DNA of 15,942 nucleotides from Leptospirales bacterium (GTDB lineage Bacteria > Spirochaetota > Leptospiria > Turneriellales > JAOUFE01). Below the pieces are notes generated by a model that searched no databases, had not been told where the DNA came from, and was given only the letters and a program-made list of their open reading frames with translations. Positions within the stretch are counted from its first letter, which is position 1, and the number at the start of each line of letters is the position of its first letter. The stretch lies in contig JBEQLE010000024.1 of NCBI GenBank assembly GCA_040326155.1, positions 4,860 through 20,801 of the forward strand, written 5' to 3'. Shown one piece after another: positions 1,695 to 12,401 of this stretch. Both the position numbers and the translations under genes were made by a program.

Positions 1695-2480
1695 CTAAAA
1701 TTTCATATGGAGTCTAATCAGGGTCTTTTTTGGACCTGGCAGAAAATCAATTTGATACTTGTTGCTTTTCGGGAATATAATACGTAAAATTGTTCCGGCA
1801 ACAAAACCGCCCATTGCGCCATAACCCAACCCATGCCATATGTCATTCACATCGTTTGATGTAATATATACCATAGAACCGGATATAGTGCCAAGTAAGA
1901 TACCGCCCAAAGCTCCGTACCAACCGTAATTAAAAAAACCTGGGCCAATGGAAAAAGGTTTGCCTTTAATTCTTTCGATAATTCCTATGGTTATCGCAGA
2001 TAATCCACCCACGCCTATTCCAACAAGCGCAAACATTTGTATATTTGATTTGGACGTAACCGTGTCGGTACTATCGTATAAAACGAGACCGCCCATAGCA
2101 CCGATGGAACCACCGGTAATAATACCATATGTCATATTGATCATAATATGTTCGAACACATTATAATTAGTGATCGAATGTGTGAACTTTTCGATCATTT
2201 CAGAACTTTTTGAGACAGGCGGAGTTTTTCGTTTTTCTGTTTTGTCTTTCTTATCTTTCGTGTTTTTCTTGTCTTCATCAGTAGTATTTGAACTGTTATC
2301 ATCTTCATTTGAATCTGACTGAGCGATCAGGGAAGAATTTGAAGGGAGTGGACTGGAATTCAATTGCGAAACTGGAAAAATAAGAAGGCACGCCAGTGCG
2401 ATTATTTGTTTGAGTCTTGTTTTTATTTTATTTTTTAACATTGCGTCTATTCTCATATAAAGAATGAATTTGAAAAGCAA
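1695..2480 (-). CDS. Hypothetical exported/membrane protein with a signal peptide, charged low-complexity linker and duplicated glycine-zipper helices; the true start is probably a downstream ATG (MRIDA or MLKNK)
   Basis: Basic N-terminus, then hydrophobic IIALACLLIFP and a D/E/K/S-rich linker. Four GxxxG-rich hydrophobic segments follow and the protein ends in Phe. It lies between pssA and lpxD with short gaps. Confidence 0.75.
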   Translation of the reverse strand: MLFKFILYMRIDAMLKNKIKTRLKQIIALACLLIFPVSQLNSSPLPSNSSLIAQSDSNEDDNSSNTTDEDKKNTKDKKDKTEKRKTPPVSKSSEMIEKFTHSITNYNVFEHIMINMTYGIITGGSIGAMGGLVLYDSTDTVTSKSNIQMFALVGIGVGGLSAITIGIIERIKGKPFSIGPGFFNYGWYGALGGILLGTISGSMVYITSNDVNDIWHGLGYGAMGGFVAGTILRIIFPKSNKYQIDFLPGPKKTLIRLHMKF

Positions 2481-2506: not shown

Positions 2507-3271
2507 CTATTCTCGTCCATTCAATCGTCCAAAAACCAGTTTAACTTTTTGCAACAAGTGAAGCCCCAGCGCTATGAACCCTGAAAATATGTAGAAAGCC
2601 AGAACTGCCAGGGTTGTCCAGTACCACTTAAACCAGAAGGCCGAAAAAGTCAGAAGCAGCACCAGAGCTACAAACCGGTATTTATTGAAATATTTTCGTA
2701 AACTGATATGCGGTTTTGAATATTTGATGTTGCTGGACATTAAAAAAGCCAGACCGAGAAAAATAGCTATGGCTACAGTTGCGTTTACCATGTAGATGCG
2801 GTTGATTACCGCCATTATGGCTATAAAAGTACCTGCAATCGGTGAAGGTAGACCTAAAAAGGAGTCGCCATCGTGTTCAACATTAAACCTGGCAAGTCGA
2901 AAGGCAGCACTTAACGGATAAATTACAGTTATAATGGCCCCGAGAGGCAAAGAAAACGATCCAATGTCAAATTTTATACTGTTTAAAAACATGGCATAAA
3001 TTAAAATAGCAGGGGCAAGGCCAAAAGTTACTAAATCAGCAAGCGAGTCAAGTTGTTCGCCCATCTGGGTTTCTACATTCAACCATCTTGCAACGGTTCC
3101 GTCAAATCCGTCAAATATAGCGGCAACCAGGATGAGTAGCCCGGAGATAAAAAACAGGCGTGAGTTATCGTAATCCTGACCGTATACAGCGTTCATCGCC
3201 CAAAGTATAGATATAACGCCTAAAGCTAAATTGCCAAGAGAAAGGGAGTTTGGTATCCAGGATTTATTCAT
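2507..3271 (-). CDS. pssA: CDP-diacylglycerol--serine O-phosphatidyltransferase (CDP-alcohol phosphotransferase type)
   Basis: CDP-alcohol motif DGFDGTVAR...GEQLDSLADLVTFGLAPA, plus RLARFN and FLGLPSP. The start is reassigned from 3310 to the ATG at 3271 (MNKSWIPNSLSLGN, the typical PssA 'IPN.L..GN' start) with AAGGA upstream. Confidence 0.9.
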   Translation of the reverse strand: MNKSWIPNSLSLGNLALGVISILWAMNAVYGQDYDNSRLFFISGLLILVAAIFDGFDGTVARWLNVETQMGEQLDSLADLVTFGLAPAILIYAMFLNSIKFDIGSFSLPLGAIITVIYPLSAAFRLARFNVEHDGDSFLGLPSPIAGTFIAIMAVINRIYMVNATVAIAIFLGLAFLMSSNIKYSKPHISLRKYFNKYRFVALVLLLTFSAFWFKWYWTTLAVLAFYIFSGFIALGLHLLQKVKLVFGRLNGRE

Positions 3272-3395
3272 ATCGTTTACATTTCCTTTGTATTCACCAC
3301 ATACAACCATTTTTCTTGGAGGTTTGACCGGTAATTGTTTACCTTCAATATTAAATTAATTGAAGCCATGTTTCCTTTCTTGAGGATGTCGTTGT
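3272..3395. promoter_or_regulatory. Divergent promoter region pssA / thrC, with a possible -35 TTGACC (3324-3329), two inverted repeats and the thrC ribosome-binding site GAGGA (3382-3386)
   Basis: Position between divergent starts. Inverted repeats are GGTAA-N4-TTACC (3330-3343) and CTTCAAT-N9-ATTGAAG (3343-3365). The -10 element is not clear. Confidence 0.45.
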
Positions 3396-4742
3396 ATGAG
3401 ATATAATGCACATTTTCAATGTATCGGTGGCTGTGAAGATCGTCACAGCTTAAACGATGTTGTCTATCGTTGTCCGAACTGTGGTAATCTTCTTGAGGTC
3501 GTTCATGATGTCGACGCTTTAAAAGACCGTTCAGCAGAAAGTTGGATTCAACTTTTTCGTGAAAGATATGGAACATCTCAGTTTCCTTTTGGCTCCGGAG
3601 TCTGGGGAAAAAAAGAGTGGGTATTACCACAAATTGAAGACCAGCATATTGTTTCTATGTACGAAGGTTCGACCAACCTGTTTCGTGGAGAACGTCTTGG
3701 AAAACTGTTTGGTCAAAAAGAGTTGTGGGTTAAACTCTGTGGAAATAGTCACACTGGTTCATTTAAAGATTTAGGTATGACCGTACTTGTTAGTCAGGTA
3801 AAATCGATGATAGCAGCAGGAAAACCAATTAAAGCAGTCGCATGCGCCTCTACGGGGGATACCTCTGCTGCGCTTGCCGCGTACGCCGCGAATGCAGAAA
3901 TACCGGCCGTTATTTTATTACCAAAAGATAAAGTTTCTTTAGCTCAGTTGATTCAGCCTGTTTCCAATGGGGCGACCGTGCTTGCCTTAGATACAGATTT
4001 TGATGGTTGTATGAAAATTGTTCAAGAGTTAACTCATGATAAAGAAATTTATCTGGCGAACTCTATGAATAGTCTTCGCATTGAAGGGCAAAAAACTGTG
4101 GGTATTGAAGTTGTGCAACAGTTGGACTGGCGCGTACCGGACTGGTTTATTATTCCTGGTGGAAATCTTGGAAATGTCACCGCTTTGGGTAACGGTTTGA
4201 CCATGCTTCATGAGCTTGGATTAATACAAAAACTTCCGCGTATTGCTCTGGCTCAGGCGGAAAAAGCAAATCCTTTATATATCTCTTTTCAAAAAAAGTT
4301 TGAAGAGTTTGAAGCCGTAAAAGCGCAGGAAACTCTTGCTTCTGCTATTCAAATTGGAAATCCTGTATCGGTGAATAAAGCAATACGAACGTTAAGAAAA
4401 TTTAATGGTGTAGTAGAACAAGCGAGTGAAGACGAACTTGCCAACGCAGCAGCTTTGGCCGATTTCTCGGGATTAATGACAGACCCACATACTGGTGTAG
4501 CATTAGCCGCGTTACAAAAACTACAGAAGAAAAAAATAATCGATCGGGAAGAGACTGTTGTTGTAATTTCAACTGCTAACGGATTGAAATTTGTCGATTT
4601 TAAAGTGAAGTATCATGAAGGGACTCTGAGTGAAGCGACGGTGAAACACCAAAACCCTCCGATTGAATTAAAAGCGGATGTGGAAGCAGTAAAAAAAATT
4701 GTACATAAAAAAGTCGATGACTTAATGAAAAAAGGATATTAA
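3396..4742 (+). CDS. thrC: Threonine synthase, plant-like subfamily, with an N-terminal Cys4 zinc-ribbon motif
   Basis: PLP-lysine motif [10 protein letters not shown], plus [38 protein letters not shown] and PHTGVALAA. The N-terminal [13 protein letters not shown] block resembles plant threonine synthases as recalled. CIGGC...CPNC lies at the N-terminus. Confidence 0.95.
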
Positions 4743-4745
4743 TCA

Positions 4746-5933
4746 ATGGCAGATAATAACGAAAAGCATGGTTTTTCTACTCGAGCCGTTCATTCGGGCG
4801 AGTTTGACCACGAAAATACGCATTCACTAACAACGCCGATTTTCCAGACTTCAACTTATAAGTTTAAGAATACGGCGGAGGTAAATTCTTTTTTTGCAGG
4901 CGATACAACACGAGTTGCAGAATATGGCCGATACGGAAATCCAACTCAAATGGCTGCGGAAGAAAAGCTACGGTCTCTGGAAAATGCAGAAGCGGCTTTA
5001 CTCTTTTCGAGTGGTATGGCTGCCGTAACCACTGCAATTTTAGCGCTTTGCAAACAGGGAGATCATGTTGTTATAACATCTGACAGTTACCGGCGAACTC
5101 GCCAATTTATTTTAGGGTTTATGCCGAAGTTTGGGCTTGAGTTTTCGGTCGTGGAACCCGACGCTGCAACCATCGAAAATAGTGTTAAAGACAATACTAA
5201 ATTAATTATTTCGGAAGCTCCGACAAACCCGTATTTACGTGTTCTGGATCTTGCCGCCCTTGTAAGTGTTGCTAAAAAGCATAAGGTGAAAACTTTAATT
5301 GATTCAACGCTGGCTACGCCTATTAACCTTCGTCCGCTTGAATACGGTGTCGACCTGGTAACCCATTCGGCAACAAAATACTTTGGCGGACACAACGACT
5401 TATTGGCCGGTGTATTAATGGGTAAAGAGTCTTTAATAAATGCCATACAAGATTTACAGGGTATGTTAGGACCTATTACTGACCCGAATACCAGTTATTT
5501 GATTATTCGCGGTTTAAAGACGCTTTCTTTAAGAGTAGAACGGCAAAATAAAACGGCTTTAGCCGTTGCCCGGTTCCTCGAAACTCATCCGAAAGTGGAA
5601 AAGACATGGTATCCTGGAATTGAATCTCACCCTGATTACGAAGTCGCAAAAAAACAGATGACGGGTTTTGGCGGAGTCGTGTCTTTTCAGGTCAAAGGTG
5701 ATCTTGAGGTTGCGAGTAAAATGATTGATAATATGAAAATACCATTAATTGCTCCTTCGTTAGGCGGCGTAGAGTCATTAATTGAACAACCCTCGTTAAT
5801 GAGTTACTATGAGTTGTCCTCTGCAGAGCGTGAGGCGATTGGAATATTCGATAATTTAATTCGCTTTTCAATTGGTGTAGAAGATGAAGAAGATATAATA
5901 CAAGATTTACGCCAGGCTTTGGACTCCATCTGA
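4746..5933 (+). CDS. metB: Cystathionine gamma-synthase, plant-like (Cys/Met metabolism PLP family)
   Basis: Family motifs EYGRYGNPT, FSSGMAA, EAPTNP, HSATKYFGGHND (PLP Lys), RGLKTL and APSLGGVESLIEQP. It has DSYRRTR instead of the YGGT of most bacterial transsulfuration enzymes, and QPSLMSYY, both plant-CGS-like. Confidence 0.82.
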   Translation: MADNNEKHGFSTRAVHSGEFDHENTHSLTTPIFQTSTYKFKNTAEVNSFFAGDTTRVAEYGRYGNPTQMAAEEKLRSLENAEAALLFSSGMAAVTTAILALCKQGDHVVITSDSYRRTRQFILGFMPKFGLEFSVVEPDAATIENSVKDNTKLIISEAPTNPYLRVLDLAALVSVAKKHKVKTLIDSTLATPINLRPLEYGVDLVTHSATKYFGGHNDLLAGVLMGKESLINAIQDLQGMLGPITDPNTSYLIIRGLKTLSLRVERQNKTALAVARFLETHPKVEKTWYPGIESHPDYEVAKKQMTGFGGVVSFQVKGDLEVASKMIDNMKIPLIAPSLGGVESLIEQPSLMSYYELSSAEREAIGIFDNLIRFSIGVEDEEDIIQDLRQALDSI

Positions 5934-6880
5934 TGAAAACAAAAAACCAACCAATACTCGCTGTAAAAAATACTATTTTAGAAACCATAGGGAATACCCC
6001 CTTGGTGCGCCTGCGAAATATTGTAGCAAATTTACCTTCTACGATGGAAATATGGGTGAAAATAGAAGGGGCAAACCCCGGAGGTTCGGTGAAAGACAGG
6101 CCGGCCTACCAGATGGTCAGTGACGGTCTTGAAAACGGTGAGCTTACTCTGGACAAAATTATTCTCGATTCTACATCAGGCAATACAGGCATCGCCCTTG
6201 CGCTTATTGGCAGTATAATAAAAATGCCTGTGACACTTTGTTTACCGGAGAATGTTTCGATTGAACGAAAGGCAAAAATACTTGCTTATGGAGCAGAACC
6301 AGTGTACACTTCACCGATGGAAGGTTCCGACGGGGCGATTGTAAAAGCCCGTGAAATGTATGAAAATGAACCGGATAAATATTTTAAACCCGATCAATAT
6401 GCGAACCCATCCAACCCCAAAGCTCATTTTTTAACTACCGGACCCGAAATCTGGAAGCAAACAGAAGGGAGAGTAACTCATTTTATTTCAACGATCGGTA
6501 CCTCTGGAACTCTCATGGGTACGGGAAAGTATTTAAAAAATGAAAATTCACAAATAAAAGTATACGCCGCTGAACCTGACGACGCTTTTCATGGTTTAGA
6601 AGGGTTAAAACACATGGAGTCTTCGCTTGTACCCGGTATCTATGACCCATCCTGGCTGGATGGAATTATTTCGATACCAACTGACCCTTCTTATGATTTA
6701 GTTCGAAAAATGGCTATGGATGACGGTATATTTGCTGGTCAATCTTCAGGCGGAGCTGTCTGGGCAGCCATTGAAATGGCCCAGCGTTTAATTGAGGCGG
6801 GTCAAAAAGAAGCTGTCATAGTAACTGTGCTACCTGACTCTGGTGACAAATATTATTCAAAAGGTTTATGGGACTACTAA
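5933..6880 (+). CDS. cysM: Cysteine synthase family PLP enzyme (CysM-like, likely O-phosphoserine sulfhydrylase type)
   Basis: Motifs IGNTPLV, NPGGSVKDR (PLP Lys54), STSGNTGIA, DQYANP, GTSGTLMG, HGLEGLKHM and PDSGDKYYS. TGATG translational coupling to metB. Confidence 0.85.
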   Translation: MKTKNQPILAVKNTILETIGNTPLVRLRNIVANLPSTMEIWVKIEGANPGGSVKDRPAYQMVSDGLENGELTLDKIILDSTSGNTGIALALIGSIIKMPVTLCLPENVSIERKAKILAYGAEPVYTSPMEGSDGAIVKAREMYENEPDKYFKPDQYANPSNPKAHFLTTGPEIWKQTEGRVTHFISTIGTSGTLMGTGKYLKNENSQIKVYAAEPDDAFHGLEGLKHMESSLVPGIYDPSWLDGIISIPTDPSYDLVRKMAMDDGIFAGQSSGGAVWAAIEMAQRLIEAGQKEAVIVTVLPDSGDKYYSKGLWDY

Positions 6881-6894
6881 AATAAAAAAATAAA

Positions 6895-7959
6895 GTGAAT
6901 TTACACCGCCGAAAAAACATAAAAAAACGCCGGGGCTTTTTTATTTTTATGATCTCCGTAACATTGGTAACCATGGCGTTATCGATGACTATTAGTATTT
7001 ATTATAGCGCTTTTTCAGAAGTGAACAGGGTTAAACAAAATTCGGAACGAGTAAAATCCAGGTATTATGCGCAAAGTGGGCTTGCTTTAGCAGTTTTGTT
7101 TTTGCGTAGAGTTTCCTGGAAAGAGCTTTACAATTTTAATCTGTTTGGTGTTCCTATTACAAAAATTAAAGGTGATGTGCAATATACGTTTACAATTACC
7201 GAAGAAACAGGCAAGTTGAATTTGAACGCTCTGGTCAATTTTTTTAACGATGATGTAAATCTATCATCGCGGGAAATGTTCGATCGTCTTGGTGAGAATT
7301 TTGGTGTTCCAGTAGATTATTGGGACGCTGTAATCGACTGGATAGATGATAATAGTGTTCGAATGCCAGGTGGCGATGAAAGCGTTGACTATGCGGCGAT
7401 GACCCCTCCACGAAGGGCAAAAAATTCTCGTTTACATTCGGTGGAAGAGCTATTATTTATTGAGAAATTTAACCCTTATATTTTATTTGAGGACGGACGT
7501 ACAAAAGAAGAAAAAGAGATGTACTCGAAAGATTTTTTGAGCGATGCGGAACAATTTGCCATTGATGAAGATGTGGATTATATTTTAGCAAATAATCTTA
7601 CTGTTTATGTTCCAGAAAACCCGCCTGGGGATATCTGGAAAATAAACATTAACTCGGCTCCCTATCATGTTGTTTTATCGTTATCAGCATTTATGATGCC
7701 GAAAACAGCCAGAAAGATCTTAGCGGCCCGTTGGGAAAATGGCGGTTACTTTACAAAATTGGACGAATTAGCCACCATAAAAGAGTTACAAGAAGACACC
7801 GGGGGTGGTGTTACACTTTTTACCGAAATTAAAGAAAAGATTGTAATTCGGGAACGAATTTATAAAATAGTCGTTGAAGCTCAAGTGGGTTCGCAGAGGG
7901 CTCATGTTTTAGGGATTTACGATGTTGTTGCTAAAAAACTGATATTGTATTTGGAGTAG
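6895..7959 (+). CDS. gspK: Type II secretion minor pseudopilin GspK
   Basis: Class III signal KKRRG|F followed by a hydrophobic helix without Glu5, as is typical for GspK. It also has EETGKLNLN, DAVIDWIDD, SVEEL and KININSAP. Confidence 0.9.
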   Translation: MNLHRRKNIKKRRGFFIFMISVTLVTMALSMTISIYYSAFSEVNRVKQNSERVKSRYYAQSGLALAVLFLRRVSWKELYNFNLFGVPITKIKGDVQYTFTITEETGKLNLNALVNFFNDDVNLSSREMFDRLGENFGVPVDYWDAVIDWIDDNSVRMPGGDESVDYAAMTPPRRAKNSRLHSVEELLFIEKFNPYILFEDGRTKEEKEMYSKDFLSDAEQFAIDEDVDYILANNLTVYVPENPPGDIWKININSAPYHVVLSLSAFMMPKTARKILAARWENGGYFTKLDELATIKELQEDTGGGVTLFTEIKEKIVIRERIYKIVVEAQVGSQRAHVLGIYDVVAKKLILYLE

Positions 7960-7960
7960 A

Positions 7961-9547
7961 ATGAAAAAGCAGATTATCATCGACAGGGGTCATTACGGAT
8001 TAAGGGCTATTGCGTGTAACCGTAAAATAACCAGTTTTTCATTTGGGGAAGGTGTATATTACCAGTTCACCTCGCAAAATTTCGAAGAGCAAACTATTGA
8101 AATGTGTGATTATATTCATCATCGATTTGAAGATGCTGAAGTTCATATCAATTTACCACCCGAAAAATTATTGATTCGAGAGTTCGACGTTCCTTTTACC
8201 GATAGAAAAAAAATTAAAGAATTAGTTCCGCATGAAATTGAATCTTTACTTCCATATGAAATGGATGAAGTGGTGTATGAGTACCGCAGTTTCGCTGATT
8301 ACAAAACTGGAATATCTAAAATAGTTACAGTCGCCTCGCCAAAAGATTTTGTTGTGAGTTATACGCAAGCTTTGGTTGAGCAAAATATTTCCATCAAAAG
8401 TATTTATGTGCCTATGGAGGGGTTATACCACCTGACGGGCATGATTGAAGAACCAAATGCAATTTATCTTATGGTGTCGCCCAGGGCTTCGCGTATACTG
8501 GTAATTCAAGATGGTAAATGGCAAACGTCTCGAGTTTTCCCTCTGGGGTATGATGTACTTGTGCGAAGACTTGCTTCTAGTTGGAAGCGCTCCGAAGAAG
8601 AGAGTAAAAATCTTTTATTGACAATTCCTGGAGAAGGCGGCGTCGAAGAAAATTCTGAATATATTCGTAAAAACTTTCGGCTTTCGAAAGCTCAGGTAAC
8701 GAATGTTGCCGAGACTATACAACAATATGGCGCAGAATTGGTACGTGAAATTCATAGAACGGTAGACTCGTTTCAATCTGAGGATAGCGAGAAAGAAGAT
8801 CTCATTATCTATTTAGCGACGGATATGGGAAATCAAATATTCCTGGAAAATCTTTTATCTCATAAACTTGGCTCTCCCGTGTATACATTTCCATATGATA
8901 GAACTCCGGTACATGTTGCCGGCAGAGAGTATTTTTTAGCCGCTGCTTCTGGAGTGGCCATAAGTTCGTCAAATGCGATGAATTTGTATACCAAAGATTT
9001 ACGAAAAAGCGTATCTACGGGAAAATCGAATATGCCCATAGCTCCCGTAGTTACGTTAGCCGTTGGACTTGTTTTTTTTATAGCTTCTTTTGCAATTGAC
9101 TTTTTTGTACAAAAAAAAGCGGCGGATGCTTTAAAACTCAGACAAAAGCAGGTGTTTCAACAATATTTTGGAGCAGAACCAACAGAAGACACGTCTTATA
9201 TTTCCCAGGCAACAGATAAACTTACGAAAGAACAATCAAAATCTGAAATATATAGAAAGTTTTTAAGTAAAGCAAAACTTCTGGTTTTAATACAAGGTCT
9301 GCAAGAATCTATCGAGACAATTAATGATATTGAAATTCGTAAAATTATTTATGCAAAAGAAGAGTTGAAATTACACGCAGAAACAGACTCATATGAGCAA
9401 TTAAGCCAGATACAGGCTATGGTTCAAAAGAATCCTGTATTTTCAAAGGTTGAACGTCAAAAAGAGTATGCTGTGCCGGGCAAAGACGGAACAAGTACAA
9501 GGGTTCGTTTTATTCTTGTTATGAAGCCGGTCCAAAAAATAAATTAA
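7961..9547 (+). CDS. gspL: Type II secretion protein GspL (PilM/actin-like cytoplasmic domain, TM helix and periplasmic domain)
   Basis: N-terminal IIIDRG strand, VPFTDRKKI...EIESLLPY and FPLGYD. A TM helix (APVVTLAVGLVFFIASFAI) is followed by a coiled coil and a ferredoxin-like C-terminal domain. It lies immediately after gspK. Confidence 0.8.
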   Translation: MKKQIIIDRGHYGLRAIACNRKITSFSFGEGVYYQFTSQNFEEQTIEMCDYIHHRFEDAEVHINLPPEKLLIREFDVPFTDRKKIKELVPHEIESLLPYEMDEVVYEYRSFADYKTGISKIVTVASPKDFVVSYTQALVEQNISIKSIYVPMEGLYHLTGMIEEPNAIYLMVSPRASRILVIQDGKWQTSRVFPLGYDVLVRRLASSWKRSEEESKNLLLTIPGEGGVEENSEYIRKNFRLSKAQVTNVAETIQQYGAELVREIHRTVDSFQSEDSEKEDLIIYLATDMGNQIFLENLLSHKLGSPVYTFPYDRTPVHVAGREYFLAAASGVAISSSNAMNLYTKDLRKSVSTGKSNMPIAPVVTLAVGLVFFIASFAIDFFVQKKAADALKLRQKQVFQQYFGAEPTEDTSYISQATDKLTKEQSKSEIYRKFLSKAKLLVLIQGLQESIETINDIEIRKIIYAKEELKLHAETDSYEQLSQIQAMVQKNPVFSKVERQKEYAVPGKDGTSTRVRFILVMKPVQKIN

Positions 9548-9558
9548 GGAAATTGGTT

Positions 9559-10068
9559 TTGAATTTAACTGGTAGAGAAGTAAAAGTTTTAATTGGTGGG
9601 GCGCTGTTTTTTGTAGTAACAGGCCTGTGGTTTGGCGGCAGATACGTATTTAATGCCATATCTGAGAATACAATTGAGAAGAATCAATTGAAAAATCAGG
9701 AACATGAAATCGAAAAACTCGGAATAGAGTATCAACATTTGAAAGGTTTAAAGGCGGGTAATAAGATCGATCTCGACCGCATGAACGTAATTATTGAAAC
9801 TCTGCTTAAACAACATGGCTTTGCTGAAAGTGCAAAGACGAACCCGACAGACAACAGGATAGAACAAAGATACAAAAAACGTACTATGCGTATTCAAATT
9901 CCTGAAACAAATGCAATAGAGATATTAAGTTTTATAAATGATATTGAAAATTTTAGAGAAATACCTATGGTAATTGACAATTTTTCAATGAGTCCTATAT
10001 TGAAAAAAGTGGGAATGTACCGAGTGAATATGACTATTTCATCGTTTCAAGATGAATCAAAGAGCTAA
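9559..10068 (+). CDS. gspM: Type II secretion protein GspM-like
   Basis: The NLTGREVKVL start resembles the GspM 'L..RER' motif and is followed by one TM helix, a coiled coil and a C-terminal domain with 'ILSFINDIE'. TTG at 9559 is better spaced from AAGGA (9546-9550) than TTG at 9553. Synteny K-L-M. Confidence 0.68.
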   Translation: MNLTGREVKVLIGGALFFVVTGLWFGGRYVFNAISENTIEKNQLKNQEHEIEKLGIEYQHLKGLKAGNKIDLDRMNVIIETLLKQHGFAESAKTNPTDNRIEQRYKKRTMRIQIPETNAIEILSFINDIENFREIPMVIDNFSMSPILKKVGMYRVNMTISSFQDESKS

Positions 10069-10071
10069 ATT

Positions 10072-10998
10072 GTGGAACACGAAGAAGAACTATTAAACAA
10101 TGAAGATGACGGGTTTACCGTTGACGCAGAATTAACCGTATCGATTTTTGATCGGGTTCGAAAATACCTGGCGTTTTTTAGCGTCGGACTGATTTCTTTA
10201 ATAATAGGCGCAGTCCTTTTTTTCCCGACAAAAAAAATACCCGCTTATCTATTTTATCTGCTGCGAGATTCCGGCATTAATGTTAATACCGAGCAGGCCA
10301 CTTTTTCCATTCTAGGTGATTTTCAAGTTGATAAACTTCAATACCTGGCAAGTCGGTCCACTCGTCTCGAAGACTTATCCATTACTCAGATTGAAGGAAA
10401 TATATCGTTAAGCGATTATATCTTTTCGGAAAAAATTGTAGCTACATTTTCAGCCATTGGTGTGAGAGTTGATTTTGGTAAAAAAGGTTCTTTGGGTGGC
10501 GGGCAGTACTCGGGTTCTATTGATCTAAATAATATAAATAAACCGCTTAGTGAAAGAGTTGGGAATATCTCACTTCAAATAAAGAATACCGGTTTAATGG
10601 TTCATGCCATTGGAACAAATTTCAGTTTTTCAATCAATAACGGAGAAATTGCCGGTGAGTTAAAGTTGGGTACTTTTCATCTAACACAGGGCAAAGTGGA
10701 AACGAGATCAGGTACCATACTCATTCAAGGCACAGTTGGATTTTCGGGGCAACAAGCTCTGAATTTAAAACTGATTGTAACTCCCAATGAAAATTTTTAT
10801 ACCAAAAGTGAGATGCTTACGAAAGAATCATTAGAATTCATGAAGGCTTTGCAACCCGATGGAACCATCCATATAAAAATTACAGGCAATATGAACAACC
10901 CCATTGTTAACATTGAAAAAGCTGCCGTTATGGAAAACCAAGGCAACCCTCGCGCCAATACTCCTGGTGGAGCGCCCGTTTTAGGCTCCCAGCGTTAA
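10072..10998 (+). CDS. gspN: Type II secretion protein GspN-like (single TM plus beta-rich periplasmic domain)
   Basis: TM helix ending in FFP, a beta-rich body, and C-terminal IKITGNMNNP (the 'i.GT...P' ending of GspN/AsmA-like proteins). Position after gspM. Confidence 0.62.
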   Translation: MEHEEELLNNEDDGFTVDAELTVSIFDRVRKYLAFFSVGLISLIIGAVLFFPTKKIPAYLFYLLRDSGINVNTEQATFSILGDFQVDKLQYLASRSTRLEDLSITQIEGNISLSDYIFSEKIVATFSAIGVRVDFGKKGSLGGGQYSGSIDLNNINKPLSERVGNISLQIKNTGLMVHAIGTNFSFSINNGEIAGELKLGTFHLTQGKVETRSGTILIQGTVGFSGQQALNLKLIVTPNENFYTKSEMLTKESLEFMKALQPDGTIHIKITGNMNNPIVNIEKAAVMENQGNPRANTPGGAPVLGSQR

Positions 10999-11361
10999 AT
11001 TTACATTTTGTTGAAGTAGAAAATACAATACTACGATAAACACAAAGGCAAGCAGAGAATAGATCGCCCAGCGAAAAAGAGTGCGACCCATACGTAATAA
11101 GTAAAAAATTACAAAACTTTTGGCACGGCTACCTTTGTTGTTGTTTTTTATTTCGAATAAATAAATCAAACGGTTCTTTCGAAAAGCTCCGTAAAATATT
11201 AAAAAAATAAATGTAAGTAGTATTAACCAGCCAGCTGGCATGATAATCGATTCGTAATACAACAAGACTGGTAAAAGAACAAGATTACCGATTAGAAAAC
11301 TTGCAACAATCAGGTAAAGTGTAATTTGTAACAGGAAACGTATTTTACTGGTTCGGTTCAT
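10981..11361 (-). CDS. Hypothetical membrane protein, about 3 TM helices
   Basis: Three hydrophobic segments with a basic loop. ATGA overlap (11358-11361) with the upstream gene. Confidence 0.7.
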   Translation of the reverse strand: MNRTSKIRFLLQITLYLIVASFLIGNLVLLPVLLYYESIIMPAGWLILLTFIFLIFYGAFRKNRLIYLFEIKNNNKGSRAKSFVIFYLLRMGRTLFRWAIYSLLAFVFIVVLYFLLQQNVNLTLGA

Positions 11362-12401
11362 TGCATAAAGTAGAAATAAGCGAGGAACAAGCCGAGTACT
11401 AAAGCGATACCTAAAGAGCCAATCAGCTGCATGCTCATTCCGTCAGATTTTTTTTCTTTTTTTGCTTTTTTCTTAGATGACGATGAAAGAGGCATTTTGC
11501 CCAAATCTTCGTTGAACCCGGATTTTGACGAAGCTTCGGCGGTTTTTGTCGGCTTTTCGAGCAGTTTACCCATATCTTTATTTGGGTTGTAGAGTCGTAC
11601 CAGGACTTTTTCTTCTTCGAGAACCTGGCCATATATATCATCTTTAAAATGGACGGTTACCTGGATACCATTGTCTTTATCTTTTTTACTTACAATGGTA
11701 GCAACCACAGATTTATAACCACCTTCGGGTTTTTTCAGTTTCCATGCGTCAATGTAATAATTTTCACGAGATCCGCGAGCAGGTATTGTAACTAATATTT
11801 TATCGCCTTTGGAAAGTTCGGTAACCAATTTACCACCAACGGGAGCTAACACAAGTTTAACAGCAACAACCTGCATCTCTTTTTTTTCTTCTGCGGGTTT
11901 ATCCTCTGTTTCTGTTTCTGTTTCTGTTTCCCGAGCTCTACCAGATTCAATTTCTTGCGCATCAATATTCACAATCTTCATTTCCGTTTCGGCCAGTTCG
12001 TCGAGAAGTGACTTTCGAAAAAGTTCGGTCAAAGTGTTCTCCACTTGTTCCGTTTTATTTTTTACAAGGTCTTCTACGAAGTCACCAACAAATTCTTCCT
12101 TACGGGTTTCAAATCGAATGGCGCTTTGCATATCCATTGAAATCGTTTCAGCGTAGTTGCCGCCATATTTATAATCTTCAATTTTATGTTCGAATTCATA
12201 CCAGGCATCCTGCATGGTAATCTGGTGAATATCCGAATATATAGAGAAAGCAATGCTAGAGTTTTCAACAAAATTTTTATTTTTGTCTACTAACAATGTA
12301 AACAGTCCAAAATAATTATGCTTTTTTGAGGTGATCTTTCCGTAAATGGAGAACCATGGTTTTTGTTCATCATTTGGTAAAGAATTGTTATTATCAGTCA
12401 T
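11358..12401 (-). CDS. Hypothetical protein with a single C-terminal TM anchor
   Basis: 347-aa ORF with no signal peptide. An N-terminal domain is followed by an ET-repeat linker, a beta-rich domain (LVLAPVGGKLVTELSKGDKILV), a Lys-rich stretch and a terminal hydrophobic helix. Confidence 0.8.
   Translation of the reverse strand: MTDNNNSLPNDEQKPWFSIYGKITSKKHNYFGLFTLLVDKNKNFVENSSIAFSIYSDIHQITMQDAWYEFEHKIEDYKYGGNYAETISMDMQSAIRFETRKEEFVGDFVEDLVKNKTEQVENTLTELFRKSLLDELAETEMKIVNIDAQEIESGRARETETETETEDKPAEEKKEMQVVAVKLVLAPVGGKLVTELSKGDKILVTIPARGSRENYYIDAWKLKKPEGGYKSVVATIVSKKDKDNGIQVTVHFKDDIYGQVLEEEKVLVRLYNPNKDMGKLLEKPTKTAEASSKSGFNEDLGKMPLSSSSKKKAKKEKKSDGMSMQLIGSLGIALVLGLFLAYFYFMQ
11905..11930 (-). repeat. 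6-bp microsatellite (TCTGTT)x4.3 encoding ETETETETE
   Basis: TCTGTT at 11905, 11911, 11917 and 11923, then TC. It is in frame in the 347-aa ORF. Confidence 0.85.

Follow-up and report, generated by a model that had tools for sequence, protein, structure and literature searches.

A thrC, cystathionine gamma-synthase and cysM operon of a Leptospirales bacterium that may use phosphorylated hydroxy-amino acids to form threonine, cysteine and a methionine precursor

The window analysed here, a stretch of 15,942 nucleotides from a Leptospirales bacterium (GTDB order Turneriellales; contig JBEQLE010000024.1, positions 4,860 to 20,801), carries three open reading frames (ORFs) for pyridoxal phosphate (PLP) enzymes. 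They lie head to tail on the plus strand at positions 3396-6880 of the window:

3396-4742, plus strand: thrC, 448 aa, PALP domain, plant-type (long, N-terminal-domain-bearing) threonine synthase
4746-5933, plus strand: CGS homologue, 395 aa, Cys_Met_Meta_PP domain, homologue of plant-type cystathionine gamma-synthase (CGS)
5933-6880, plus strand: cysM, 315 aa, PALP domain, CysM-type cysteine synthase

The thrC and CGS genes are separated by three bases (TAA-tca-ATG), and at the CGS/cysM junction (cTGATGaaa) one base is common to the stop and the start. The ORF coordinates and junction sequences thus confirm the tight packing of the three genes that had been noticed in a sequence-only reading of the window. 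That reading had also remarked on the lack of homoserine acyltransferase (metA, metX) and serine acetyltransferase (cysE) genes, and none of these was found among the 15 window ORFs scanned against Pfam and NCBIfam, LpxD being the sole hexapeptide protein among them. The three-gene order is not a product of chance, because it recurs in 10 of 34 genomes of the order. We propose, with a probability of roughly 0.6, that the operon starts from phosphorylated hydroxy-amino acids and dispenses with acyl-CoA in forming threonine, cysteine and a methionine precursor. The analysis established the order of the genes, their homology and phylogeny, and which pathway genes are present or absent, and every substrate named below is deduced from these.

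The ThrC protein passes the NCBIfam thrC model TIGR00260 (231.1 bits, cut-off 167.1) and is the sole threonine synthase homologue in the genome. Its match to the threonine synthase of Arabidopsis (1e5x) scored 523 bits, with residues 7-436 aligned on residues 46-475 of the chain and the N-terminal domain included, whereas the next threonine synthases among all solved structures, those of Aquifex, Mycobacterium tuberculosis, Thermus and Bacillus, scored 180-200 bits. The comparison with plant threonine synthase suggested by the sequence-only reading therefore gave a clear answer, the Arabidopsis match standing far above any solved bacterial one, and ThrC is, judged by its sequence, an orthologue-level relative of the plant enzyme. 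Four cysteines of the N-terminal domain, C9, C13, C26 and C29 (window 3420-3485), form a zinc-ribbon-like CxxxC...CxxC pattern. The bacterial ThrC keeps these cysteines, unlike the Arabidopsis enzyme, in which the aligned residues are A, S, S and S.

The second protein is a member of PF01053 (Cys_Met_Meta_PP, 450 bits) and falls under the cut-off of all 25 NCBIfam families listed, the best being NF006097 (382 versus 600 bits). Its best solved match is tobacco CGS (1qgn/1i41, 401 bits) and the second best a methionine gamma-lyase (333 bits). The family is very large in bacteria, and the 120 best matches listed are 56-69% identical to the window protein and come from several phyla. Among 62 longer homologues, 45 are ThrC-CGS fusions (PF00291 plus PF01053, ~848 residues) and three are plant CGS, 44-50% identical to the CGS homologue. 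A maximum-likelihood tree was constructed from 56 hand-chosen rows (53 distinct), with most of the 80 CGS loci examined outside the order left out; it was midpoint-rooted and is not used to name a donor or a direction of transfer. With support 100/99, 38 of the 56 rows form a clade that includes the window protein and the three plant CGS together with the orthologues of the order, thrC-linked homologues from a family of the order here called f7, ThrC-CGS fusions and sequences from many phyla. The plant CGS are nested within this bacterial clade, sister to a Spirochaetales sequence (98/98). MetY-like proteins encoded next to metX, second paralogues of Planctomycetota and other paralogues fall outside it. 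The phylogeny asked for by the earlier reading thus grouped the CGS homologue with plant CGS and apart from MetY-like and other paralogues, and the tree places it as an orthologue-level relative of plant CGS.

Across the 34 genomes of the order, the thrC-CGS-cysM triple was kept, in this order, in 10 genomes from four families (the triple genomes), and thrC-CGS without cysM was found in 16 further genomes, all of family f7. Directly upstream of the CGS homologue lies thrC in 26 of the 34, so the synteny survey upheld the arrangement. Within the triple genomes metX was not detected in any of the 10 (best match 22 bits), nor cysE (best 47 bits), nor metA; thrB was present in nine, missing only from a genome that is 80% complete, and every one of the 10 had a single PF01053 gene. 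The genome of the window itself (4.26 Mb, 171 contigs, 94.66% complete) gave a best metX match of 20 bits, and neither metA nor metE was found. Its best cysE match, at 37.8 bits, is a WbbJ/WcaF-like sugar acetyltransferase. The homoserine kinase gene thrB (197.9 bits, above cut-off) and metH (1058 bits) are present, and the window's CGS gene is the sole true PF01053 member. A genome-wide search for metA, metX, cysE and thrB had been proposed with the sequence-only reading, and its outcome in this genome and its nine triple relatives agrees with that reading.

The other 24 genomes of the order all have metX (split in two in one genome), often beside a MetY-like gene, 22 have a cysE-like gene (161-178 bits), and each has one to three PF01053 genes. 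Their cysteine synthases are of the CysK type only, 33-39% identical to the window protein and in several cases encoded beside cysE; the CysM type of the window (60-75% identity) is confined within the order to the triple genomes. The 10 triple genomes are related and not independent, and on a tree they stand for a single loss or a small number of losses. Where a family has kept metX, a MetY-like PF01053 gene of ~440 residues directly adjoins it (G013:C37, G018:C15, G014:C88, G017:C6), a pair resembling those for direct sulfhydrylation, which in family f7 coexists with thrC-CGS.

These counts bear on whether the three enzymes are ordinary acyl-dependent ones, served by unrecognised non-orthologous acyltransferases or by metX and cysE genes in unassembled parts of the genome. 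The completeness and contig number of the window's genome leave some room for this, other hexapeptide acyltransferases (WbbJ-like, LpxD) give weak matches to the cysE model, and CysM resembles E. coli CysM. However, the absences extend to all 10 triple genomes, and since these include assemblies of 1, 3 and 5 contigs that are 95-99% complete, they are not assembly gaps. The same searches detected metX in 24 of 24 and cysE-like genes in 22 of 24 of the other genomes, and the metY partner was lost together with metX. Dependence on acyl esters is accordingly regarded as very improbable.

Outside the order, 80 loci with a plant-type CGS were examined and 50 of those genomes were searched for metX and metA. 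In five of the 80 loci the gene immediately upstream of CGS is a plant-like thrC (60-67% identity), in nine more a 39-44% identical thrC lies near CGS, and in one a cysM-like gene stands next to CGS. A metX-like gene was found in 19 of the 50 genomes, a metA-like gene in two and neither in 29, the last including the complete 14-Mb genome of Sorangium. A plant-type CGS thus often, but not always, accompanies acyltransferase loss. In eight of the 80 loci, all from Planctomycetota (L060, L062, L068, L075, L090, L092, L094 and L097), CGS is directly followed by a second PF01053 paralogue (37-41% identity), possibly as a metB-metC pair.

In plants, threonine synthase is activated by S-adenosylmethionine (SAM) and CGS depends on O-phosphohomoserine. 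Both enzymes of this plastid branch point (Arabidopsis TS1, 1e5x/2c2b/2c2g; tobacco CGS, 1qgn/1i41) are orthologue-level relatives of the ThrC and CGS of the operon, and the bacterial genome resembles the plant system in having a homoserine kinase and no homoserine acyltransferase. Unlike in plants, thrC and CGS are adjacent and co-oriented in the bacterial operon, and are fused in other bacteria. The alignment of the CGS homologue starts at residue 60 of the tobacco chain, the plant N-terminal stretch being without counterpart, and the bacterial genome also differs in that no beta-lyase was found. By homology, the plant branch point has its bacterial equivalent in the threonine/methionine half of the operon. 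On grounds of context rather than biochemistry, it is likely that O-phosphohomoserine is used there. The homoserine kinase encoded elsewhere in the genome would supply this ester, which the threonine synthase would convert to threonine and the CGS homologue would carry towards homocysteine; MetH would then methylate homocysteine to methionine.

Sulfur for these reactions appears to be supplied by a cysH-sir-cysD-cysN cluster (contig C162), from which it follows that sulfate is reduced for assimilation. The genome encodes three PALP proteins only, namely thrC, the window's cysM and trpB, and the window's cysM is the sole cysteine synthase homologue. The candidates for fixing sulfide are solely the CGS homologue and the CysM of the operon. 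With only three PALP proteins there is no threonine dehydratase of the IlvA type, and isoleucine synthesis must begin otherwise. Besides the assimilatory cluster (L164), the genome carries a dissimilatory-type sulfite reductase, with dsrA and dsrB (509 and 487 bits, both above cut-offs; contig C164, L165:1505-5621) followed by a gene for a GltD-like NAD(P)-binding iron-sulfur oxidoreductase. Pairs of 400 plus 360 residues resembling dsrA/dsrB were seen in three relatives of the same family. On contig C99 (L166:1468-3258), the gene for an AsrC-like subunit C of a sulfite reductase (406 bits) adjoins that for a channel of the NirC/FNT family.

The third protein of the operon has a PALP domain (197.9 bits), and its best solved matches are the CysM proteins of Salmonella (242 bits) and Escherichia coli (238 bits), followed at a distance by the O-phosphoserine sulfhydrylase CysM of M. 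tuberculosis (195 bits). The E. coli enzyme depends on O-acetylserine. The window protein aligns nearly end to end with the E. coli and Salmonella enzymes (O-acetylserine sulfhydrylase B, 2bht, 2jc3), the PLP-lysine and TSGNT stretches included. It differs in falling below the cysM cut-off, in the absence of cysE from its genome and in having Lys226 (K226) aligned with Arg210 (R210) of E. coli CysM, a residue which we take to be important. The sequence-only reading had seen a phospho-substrate signature in all three enzymes; for CysM none was shown, the residue comparison being confined to the alignment with E. coli CysM, and its best solved matches are CysMs that use O-acetylserine.

Relatives of this CysM, 45-58% identical, occur in other phyla. 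At eight loci examined outside the order, a Prok-JAB gene follows the CysM gene in seven, a ThiS gene is present in two and a ThiF gene in one. In a tree of 22 rows, from which one partial copy from the triple genomes was left out, the nine full-length CysMs of the triple genomes were monophyletic (100/100) and fell within a clade, again 100/100, with JAB/ThiS-linked relatives, far from the cysE-linked CysK of a further family of the order (f6). The JAB/ThiS-linked CysMs scored ~237-249 bits against E. coli and Salmonella CysM and 193-195 bits against M. tuberculosis CysM. The score against solved structures was rejected as a discriminator of CysM substrates, as these proteins show an equal pattern.

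Cysteine synthesis in M. tuberculosis is carried out by CysM with CysO and Mec (3dki, 3dwg), a system dependent on O-phosphoserine and a protein thiocarboxylate, as described in the relevant sections of PMC12910592. The window protein is likewise a CysM-type PALP enzyme, with 195 bits to 3dki, and its nearest outside relatives stand beside JAB (Mec-like), ThiS (CysO-like) and ThiF genes. Its genome holds one Prok-JAB gene and ThiS-family genes, all unlinked to cysM, one ThiS-family product ending in Gly-Gly, and no recognisable CysE. In the window, unlike in the CysM/CysO/Mec system, mec and cysO are not adjacent to cysM, and gspK follows 14 bases downstream instead. The Gly-Gly ThiS-family protein (90 residues, SAMP1/MoaD-like) is encoded ~3.9 kb past the window end (contig C88, L156:1269-1770). 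Its gene adjoins those for a NIL-domain protein of 73 residues and a membrane protein resembling TauE/SafE. Together the three may make up a sulfur-carrier set, distinct from the thiS and moaD that the genome also has.

That cysteine is made independently of O-acetylserine is well supported. The case for O-phosphoserine as the acceptor is made by the absence of cysE and by the gene context of the CysM relatives; it is plausible, at about even odds, and less secure than the O-phosphohomoserine branch point. The CysM-type enzyme would thus make cysteine without O-acetylserine, most likely from O-phosphoserine, taking its sulfur either from sulfide formed via cysH-sir-cysD-cysN or from the thiocarboxylate of a ThiS-like protein. 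The sequence-only reading had proposed an acyl-CoA-independent network resembling that of the plastid. The resemblance holds for threonine and methionine, with plant-type ThrC and CGS, and not for cysteine, which plants make from O-acetylserine.

A pairing of a CysK-like with a MetB-like enzyme is also the layout of mccAB in Bacillus and cysK-metB in Helicobacter, and reverse transsulfuration of the MccA/MccB kind has therefore to be weighed. The CysM-like protein would then join homocysteine to serine, perhaps activated, and the CGS-like protein would cleave cystathionine to cysteine, with methionine imported and thrC a mere neighbour. The lack of a homoserine acyltransferase in the genome would fit, as would the fact that, after tobacco CGS, the CGS homologue best matches solved methionine and cystathionine gamma-lyases. 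Against these stand the position of the CGS homologue in the plant CGS clade, which also includes the ThrC-CGS fusions, the adjacency of thrC in 26 of 34 genomes, and a complete assimilatory sulfate-reduction cluster with no further sulfhydrylase candidate. Moreover, MccA-type enzymes use O-acetylserine, for which cysE is absent (best match 37.8 bits), and the JAB and ThiS genes to which the CysM clade is linked are the setting of a cysteine synthase. These data make reverse transsulfuration very improbable here.

Several observations weigh against synthesis of all three products from phosphorylated esters. All the genomes are draft or metagenome-derived, and each single absence is soft. In family f7 (16 genomes, no cysM) metX and a MetY-like gene are found alongside the CGS homologue, and metX occurs in 19 of the 50 outside genomes with a plant-type CGS; owing to this coexistence, membership of the clade is not in itself proof of O-phosphohomoserine use. 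The CysM protein lies below the NCBIfam cut-offs for cysM (TIGR01138, 355.1 versus 394.2) and cysKM (TIGR01136, 337.1 versus 344.15), and no mec or cysO neighbour of cysM was found in the window or in eight relatives examined. It also scores higher against the O-acetylserine-using CysM of E. coli and Salmonella than against that of M. tuberculosis, but since the JAB-linked CysMs share this pattern, the higher E. coli score is no argument against O-phosphoserine. The genome was found to contain no metC-type PF01053 paralogue and no PatB/MalY orthologue, the PatB model matching general class-I aminotransferases only (best 169 bits, cut-off 340). The canonical serC (TIGR01364) was not found either, its best match (27.6 bits) being a class-V aminotransferase; this search did not extend to serA, serB or serine kinases. 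To our knowledge, enzyme activity has been reported for no bacterial member of the CGS and CysM clades. The class-V aminotransferase (BhcA/AGXT-like, 284 bits, below cut-off) is encoded between a hisZ-like gene and glyS (contig C6, L159:1174-2304); it is the sole weak match to the serC model and possibly a non-canonical phosphoserine aminotransferase.

The formation of homocysteine can be pictured in more than one way. The sequence-only reading had O-phosphohomoserine and cysteine joined to cystathionine and had suggested a search for metC and patB. A plant-type CGS is indeed present, but no cystathionine beta-lyase was found, and homocysteine may arise through an unrecognised lyase acting on cystathionine, through a bifunctional CGS homologue or by direct sulfhydrylation of O-phosphohomoserine. 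The last two would have the CGS homologue make homocysteine itself, from O-phosphohomoserine and sulfide or as a combined synthase and lyase, so that cystathionine is no free intermediate and CysM works in parallel without feeding CGS. This model alone has no missing enzyme: all 10 triple genomes have a single PF01053 gene, no PatB/MalY orthologue is present, and the genome makes sulfide via cysH-sir-cysD-cysN. It is nevertheless at variance with orthologue-level relationship to plant CGS, which uses cysteine, and with the position of cysM directly downstream, which suits a supply of cysteine to CGS; the second PF01053 paralogue directly after CGS in the eight Planctomycetota loci, which is metB-metC-like, also speaks for two separate enzymes. 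In favour of such a model, a single-enzyme MetB/MetC has been proposed for Xanthomonadales, according to the relevant parts of PMC13759103 and its preprint. On balance, a CGS homologue that makes homocysteine directly or bifunctionally, with the operon and the supply of O-phosphohomoserine unchanged, is somewhat unlikely.

A broader form of this proposal can be put forward only tentatively. Four families of the order may have lost MetX/MetA with MetY and CysE with CysK, and may make threonine, methionine and cysteine on phospho-esters alone from one operon, with one PF01053 enzyme taking O-phosphohomoserine the whole way to homocysteine. The plastid branch point of threonine synthase and CGS may then descend from a widespread bacterial thrC-CGS module in which the two enzymes already competed for O-phosphohomoserine.

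The surroundings of the operon in the window are as follows:

1695-2480, minus strand: unnamed ORF, 261 residues, without a Pfam or NCBIfam assignment at the thresholds applied
2507-3310, minus strand: pssA-like gene, divergent from thrC
3311-3395, plus strand: spacer of 85 bases between the divergent pssA-like gene and thrC, presumed promoter region
6895-10998, plus strand: type II secretion genes gspK, gspL-like, a 171-aa ORF and gspN-like, with the gspK start 14 bases past cysM
9553-10068, plus strand: unnamed ORF, 171 residues, without a Pfam or NCBIfam assignment at the thresholds applied
11358-12401, minus strand: unnamed ORF, 347 residues, without a Pfam or NCBIfam assignment at the thresholds applied

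The genes upstream of the operon (ruvX, lpxD, an unnamed ORF and the pssA-like gene) are on the minus strand, and we infer the operon promoter to lie in the spacer at 3311-3395. Promoter-like hexamers were located at 3324-3352 (9/12 matches) and 3380-3407 (10/12), upstream of and at the thrC start, but such sites were not more frequent in the region than in shuffled sequence (12 observed, 8.1 +/- 3.1 in shuffles). No Rfam family was detected anywhere in the window at E <= 0.1, and neither a SAM riboswitch nor a T-box was found upstream. Terminator-like sites did not exceed shuffled counts and none was found after cysM, so the transcript may run on into the type II secretion genes, of which the gspN-like gene matches a Leptospira-type model. 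In three relatives of the same family, cysM is followed by unannotated, co-oriented ORFs of 359-382 aa.

A methionine route from O-phosphohomoserine is named only for plants (CGS) and some Streptomyces (MetM/MetO) in the pertinent passages of bioRxiv 10.64898/2026.09.15.751699, and the corresponding parts of GapMind 2026 (PMC13759103) add only MetM/MetO as such a route. The Streptomyces pathway, as outlined in Appendix 4 of PMC13759103, leads from O-phosphohomoserine to homocysteine by means of a ThrC homologue and a thiocarboxylate carrier. It shares with the operon a methionine synthesis starting at O-phosphohomoserine and the involvement of a ThrC-family protein, but the ThrC of the operon is the genome's sole, plant-like threonine synthase, and the candidate for forming homocysteine is a PF01053 enzyme. 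A search of the full-text literature, which mostly did not reach subscription journals and excluded supplements, yielded no account of a bacterial CGS dependent on O-phosphohomoserine or of the three-gene operon; older work, for instance on the substrates of bacterial CGS, is possible. New here are the linkage to cysM and the loss, together and in four families, of cysE, metX, metA and metY-like genes, a variant that is consistent in itself and open to experiment.

Should the proposed working of the operon prove right, the plant methionine route would be used by many bacterial phyla. Genomes of this kind would be misscored as methionine or cysteine auxotrophs for want of metA, metX and cysE, which matters for the metabolic reconstruction of uncultured bacteria. 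The compact three-gene unit and the natural ThrC-CGS fusions of other bacteria offer material for testing the proposal. In bacteria, a single substrate would then serve both threonine synthase and CGS, which raises the question of whether the control of threonine synthase by SAM predated plants.

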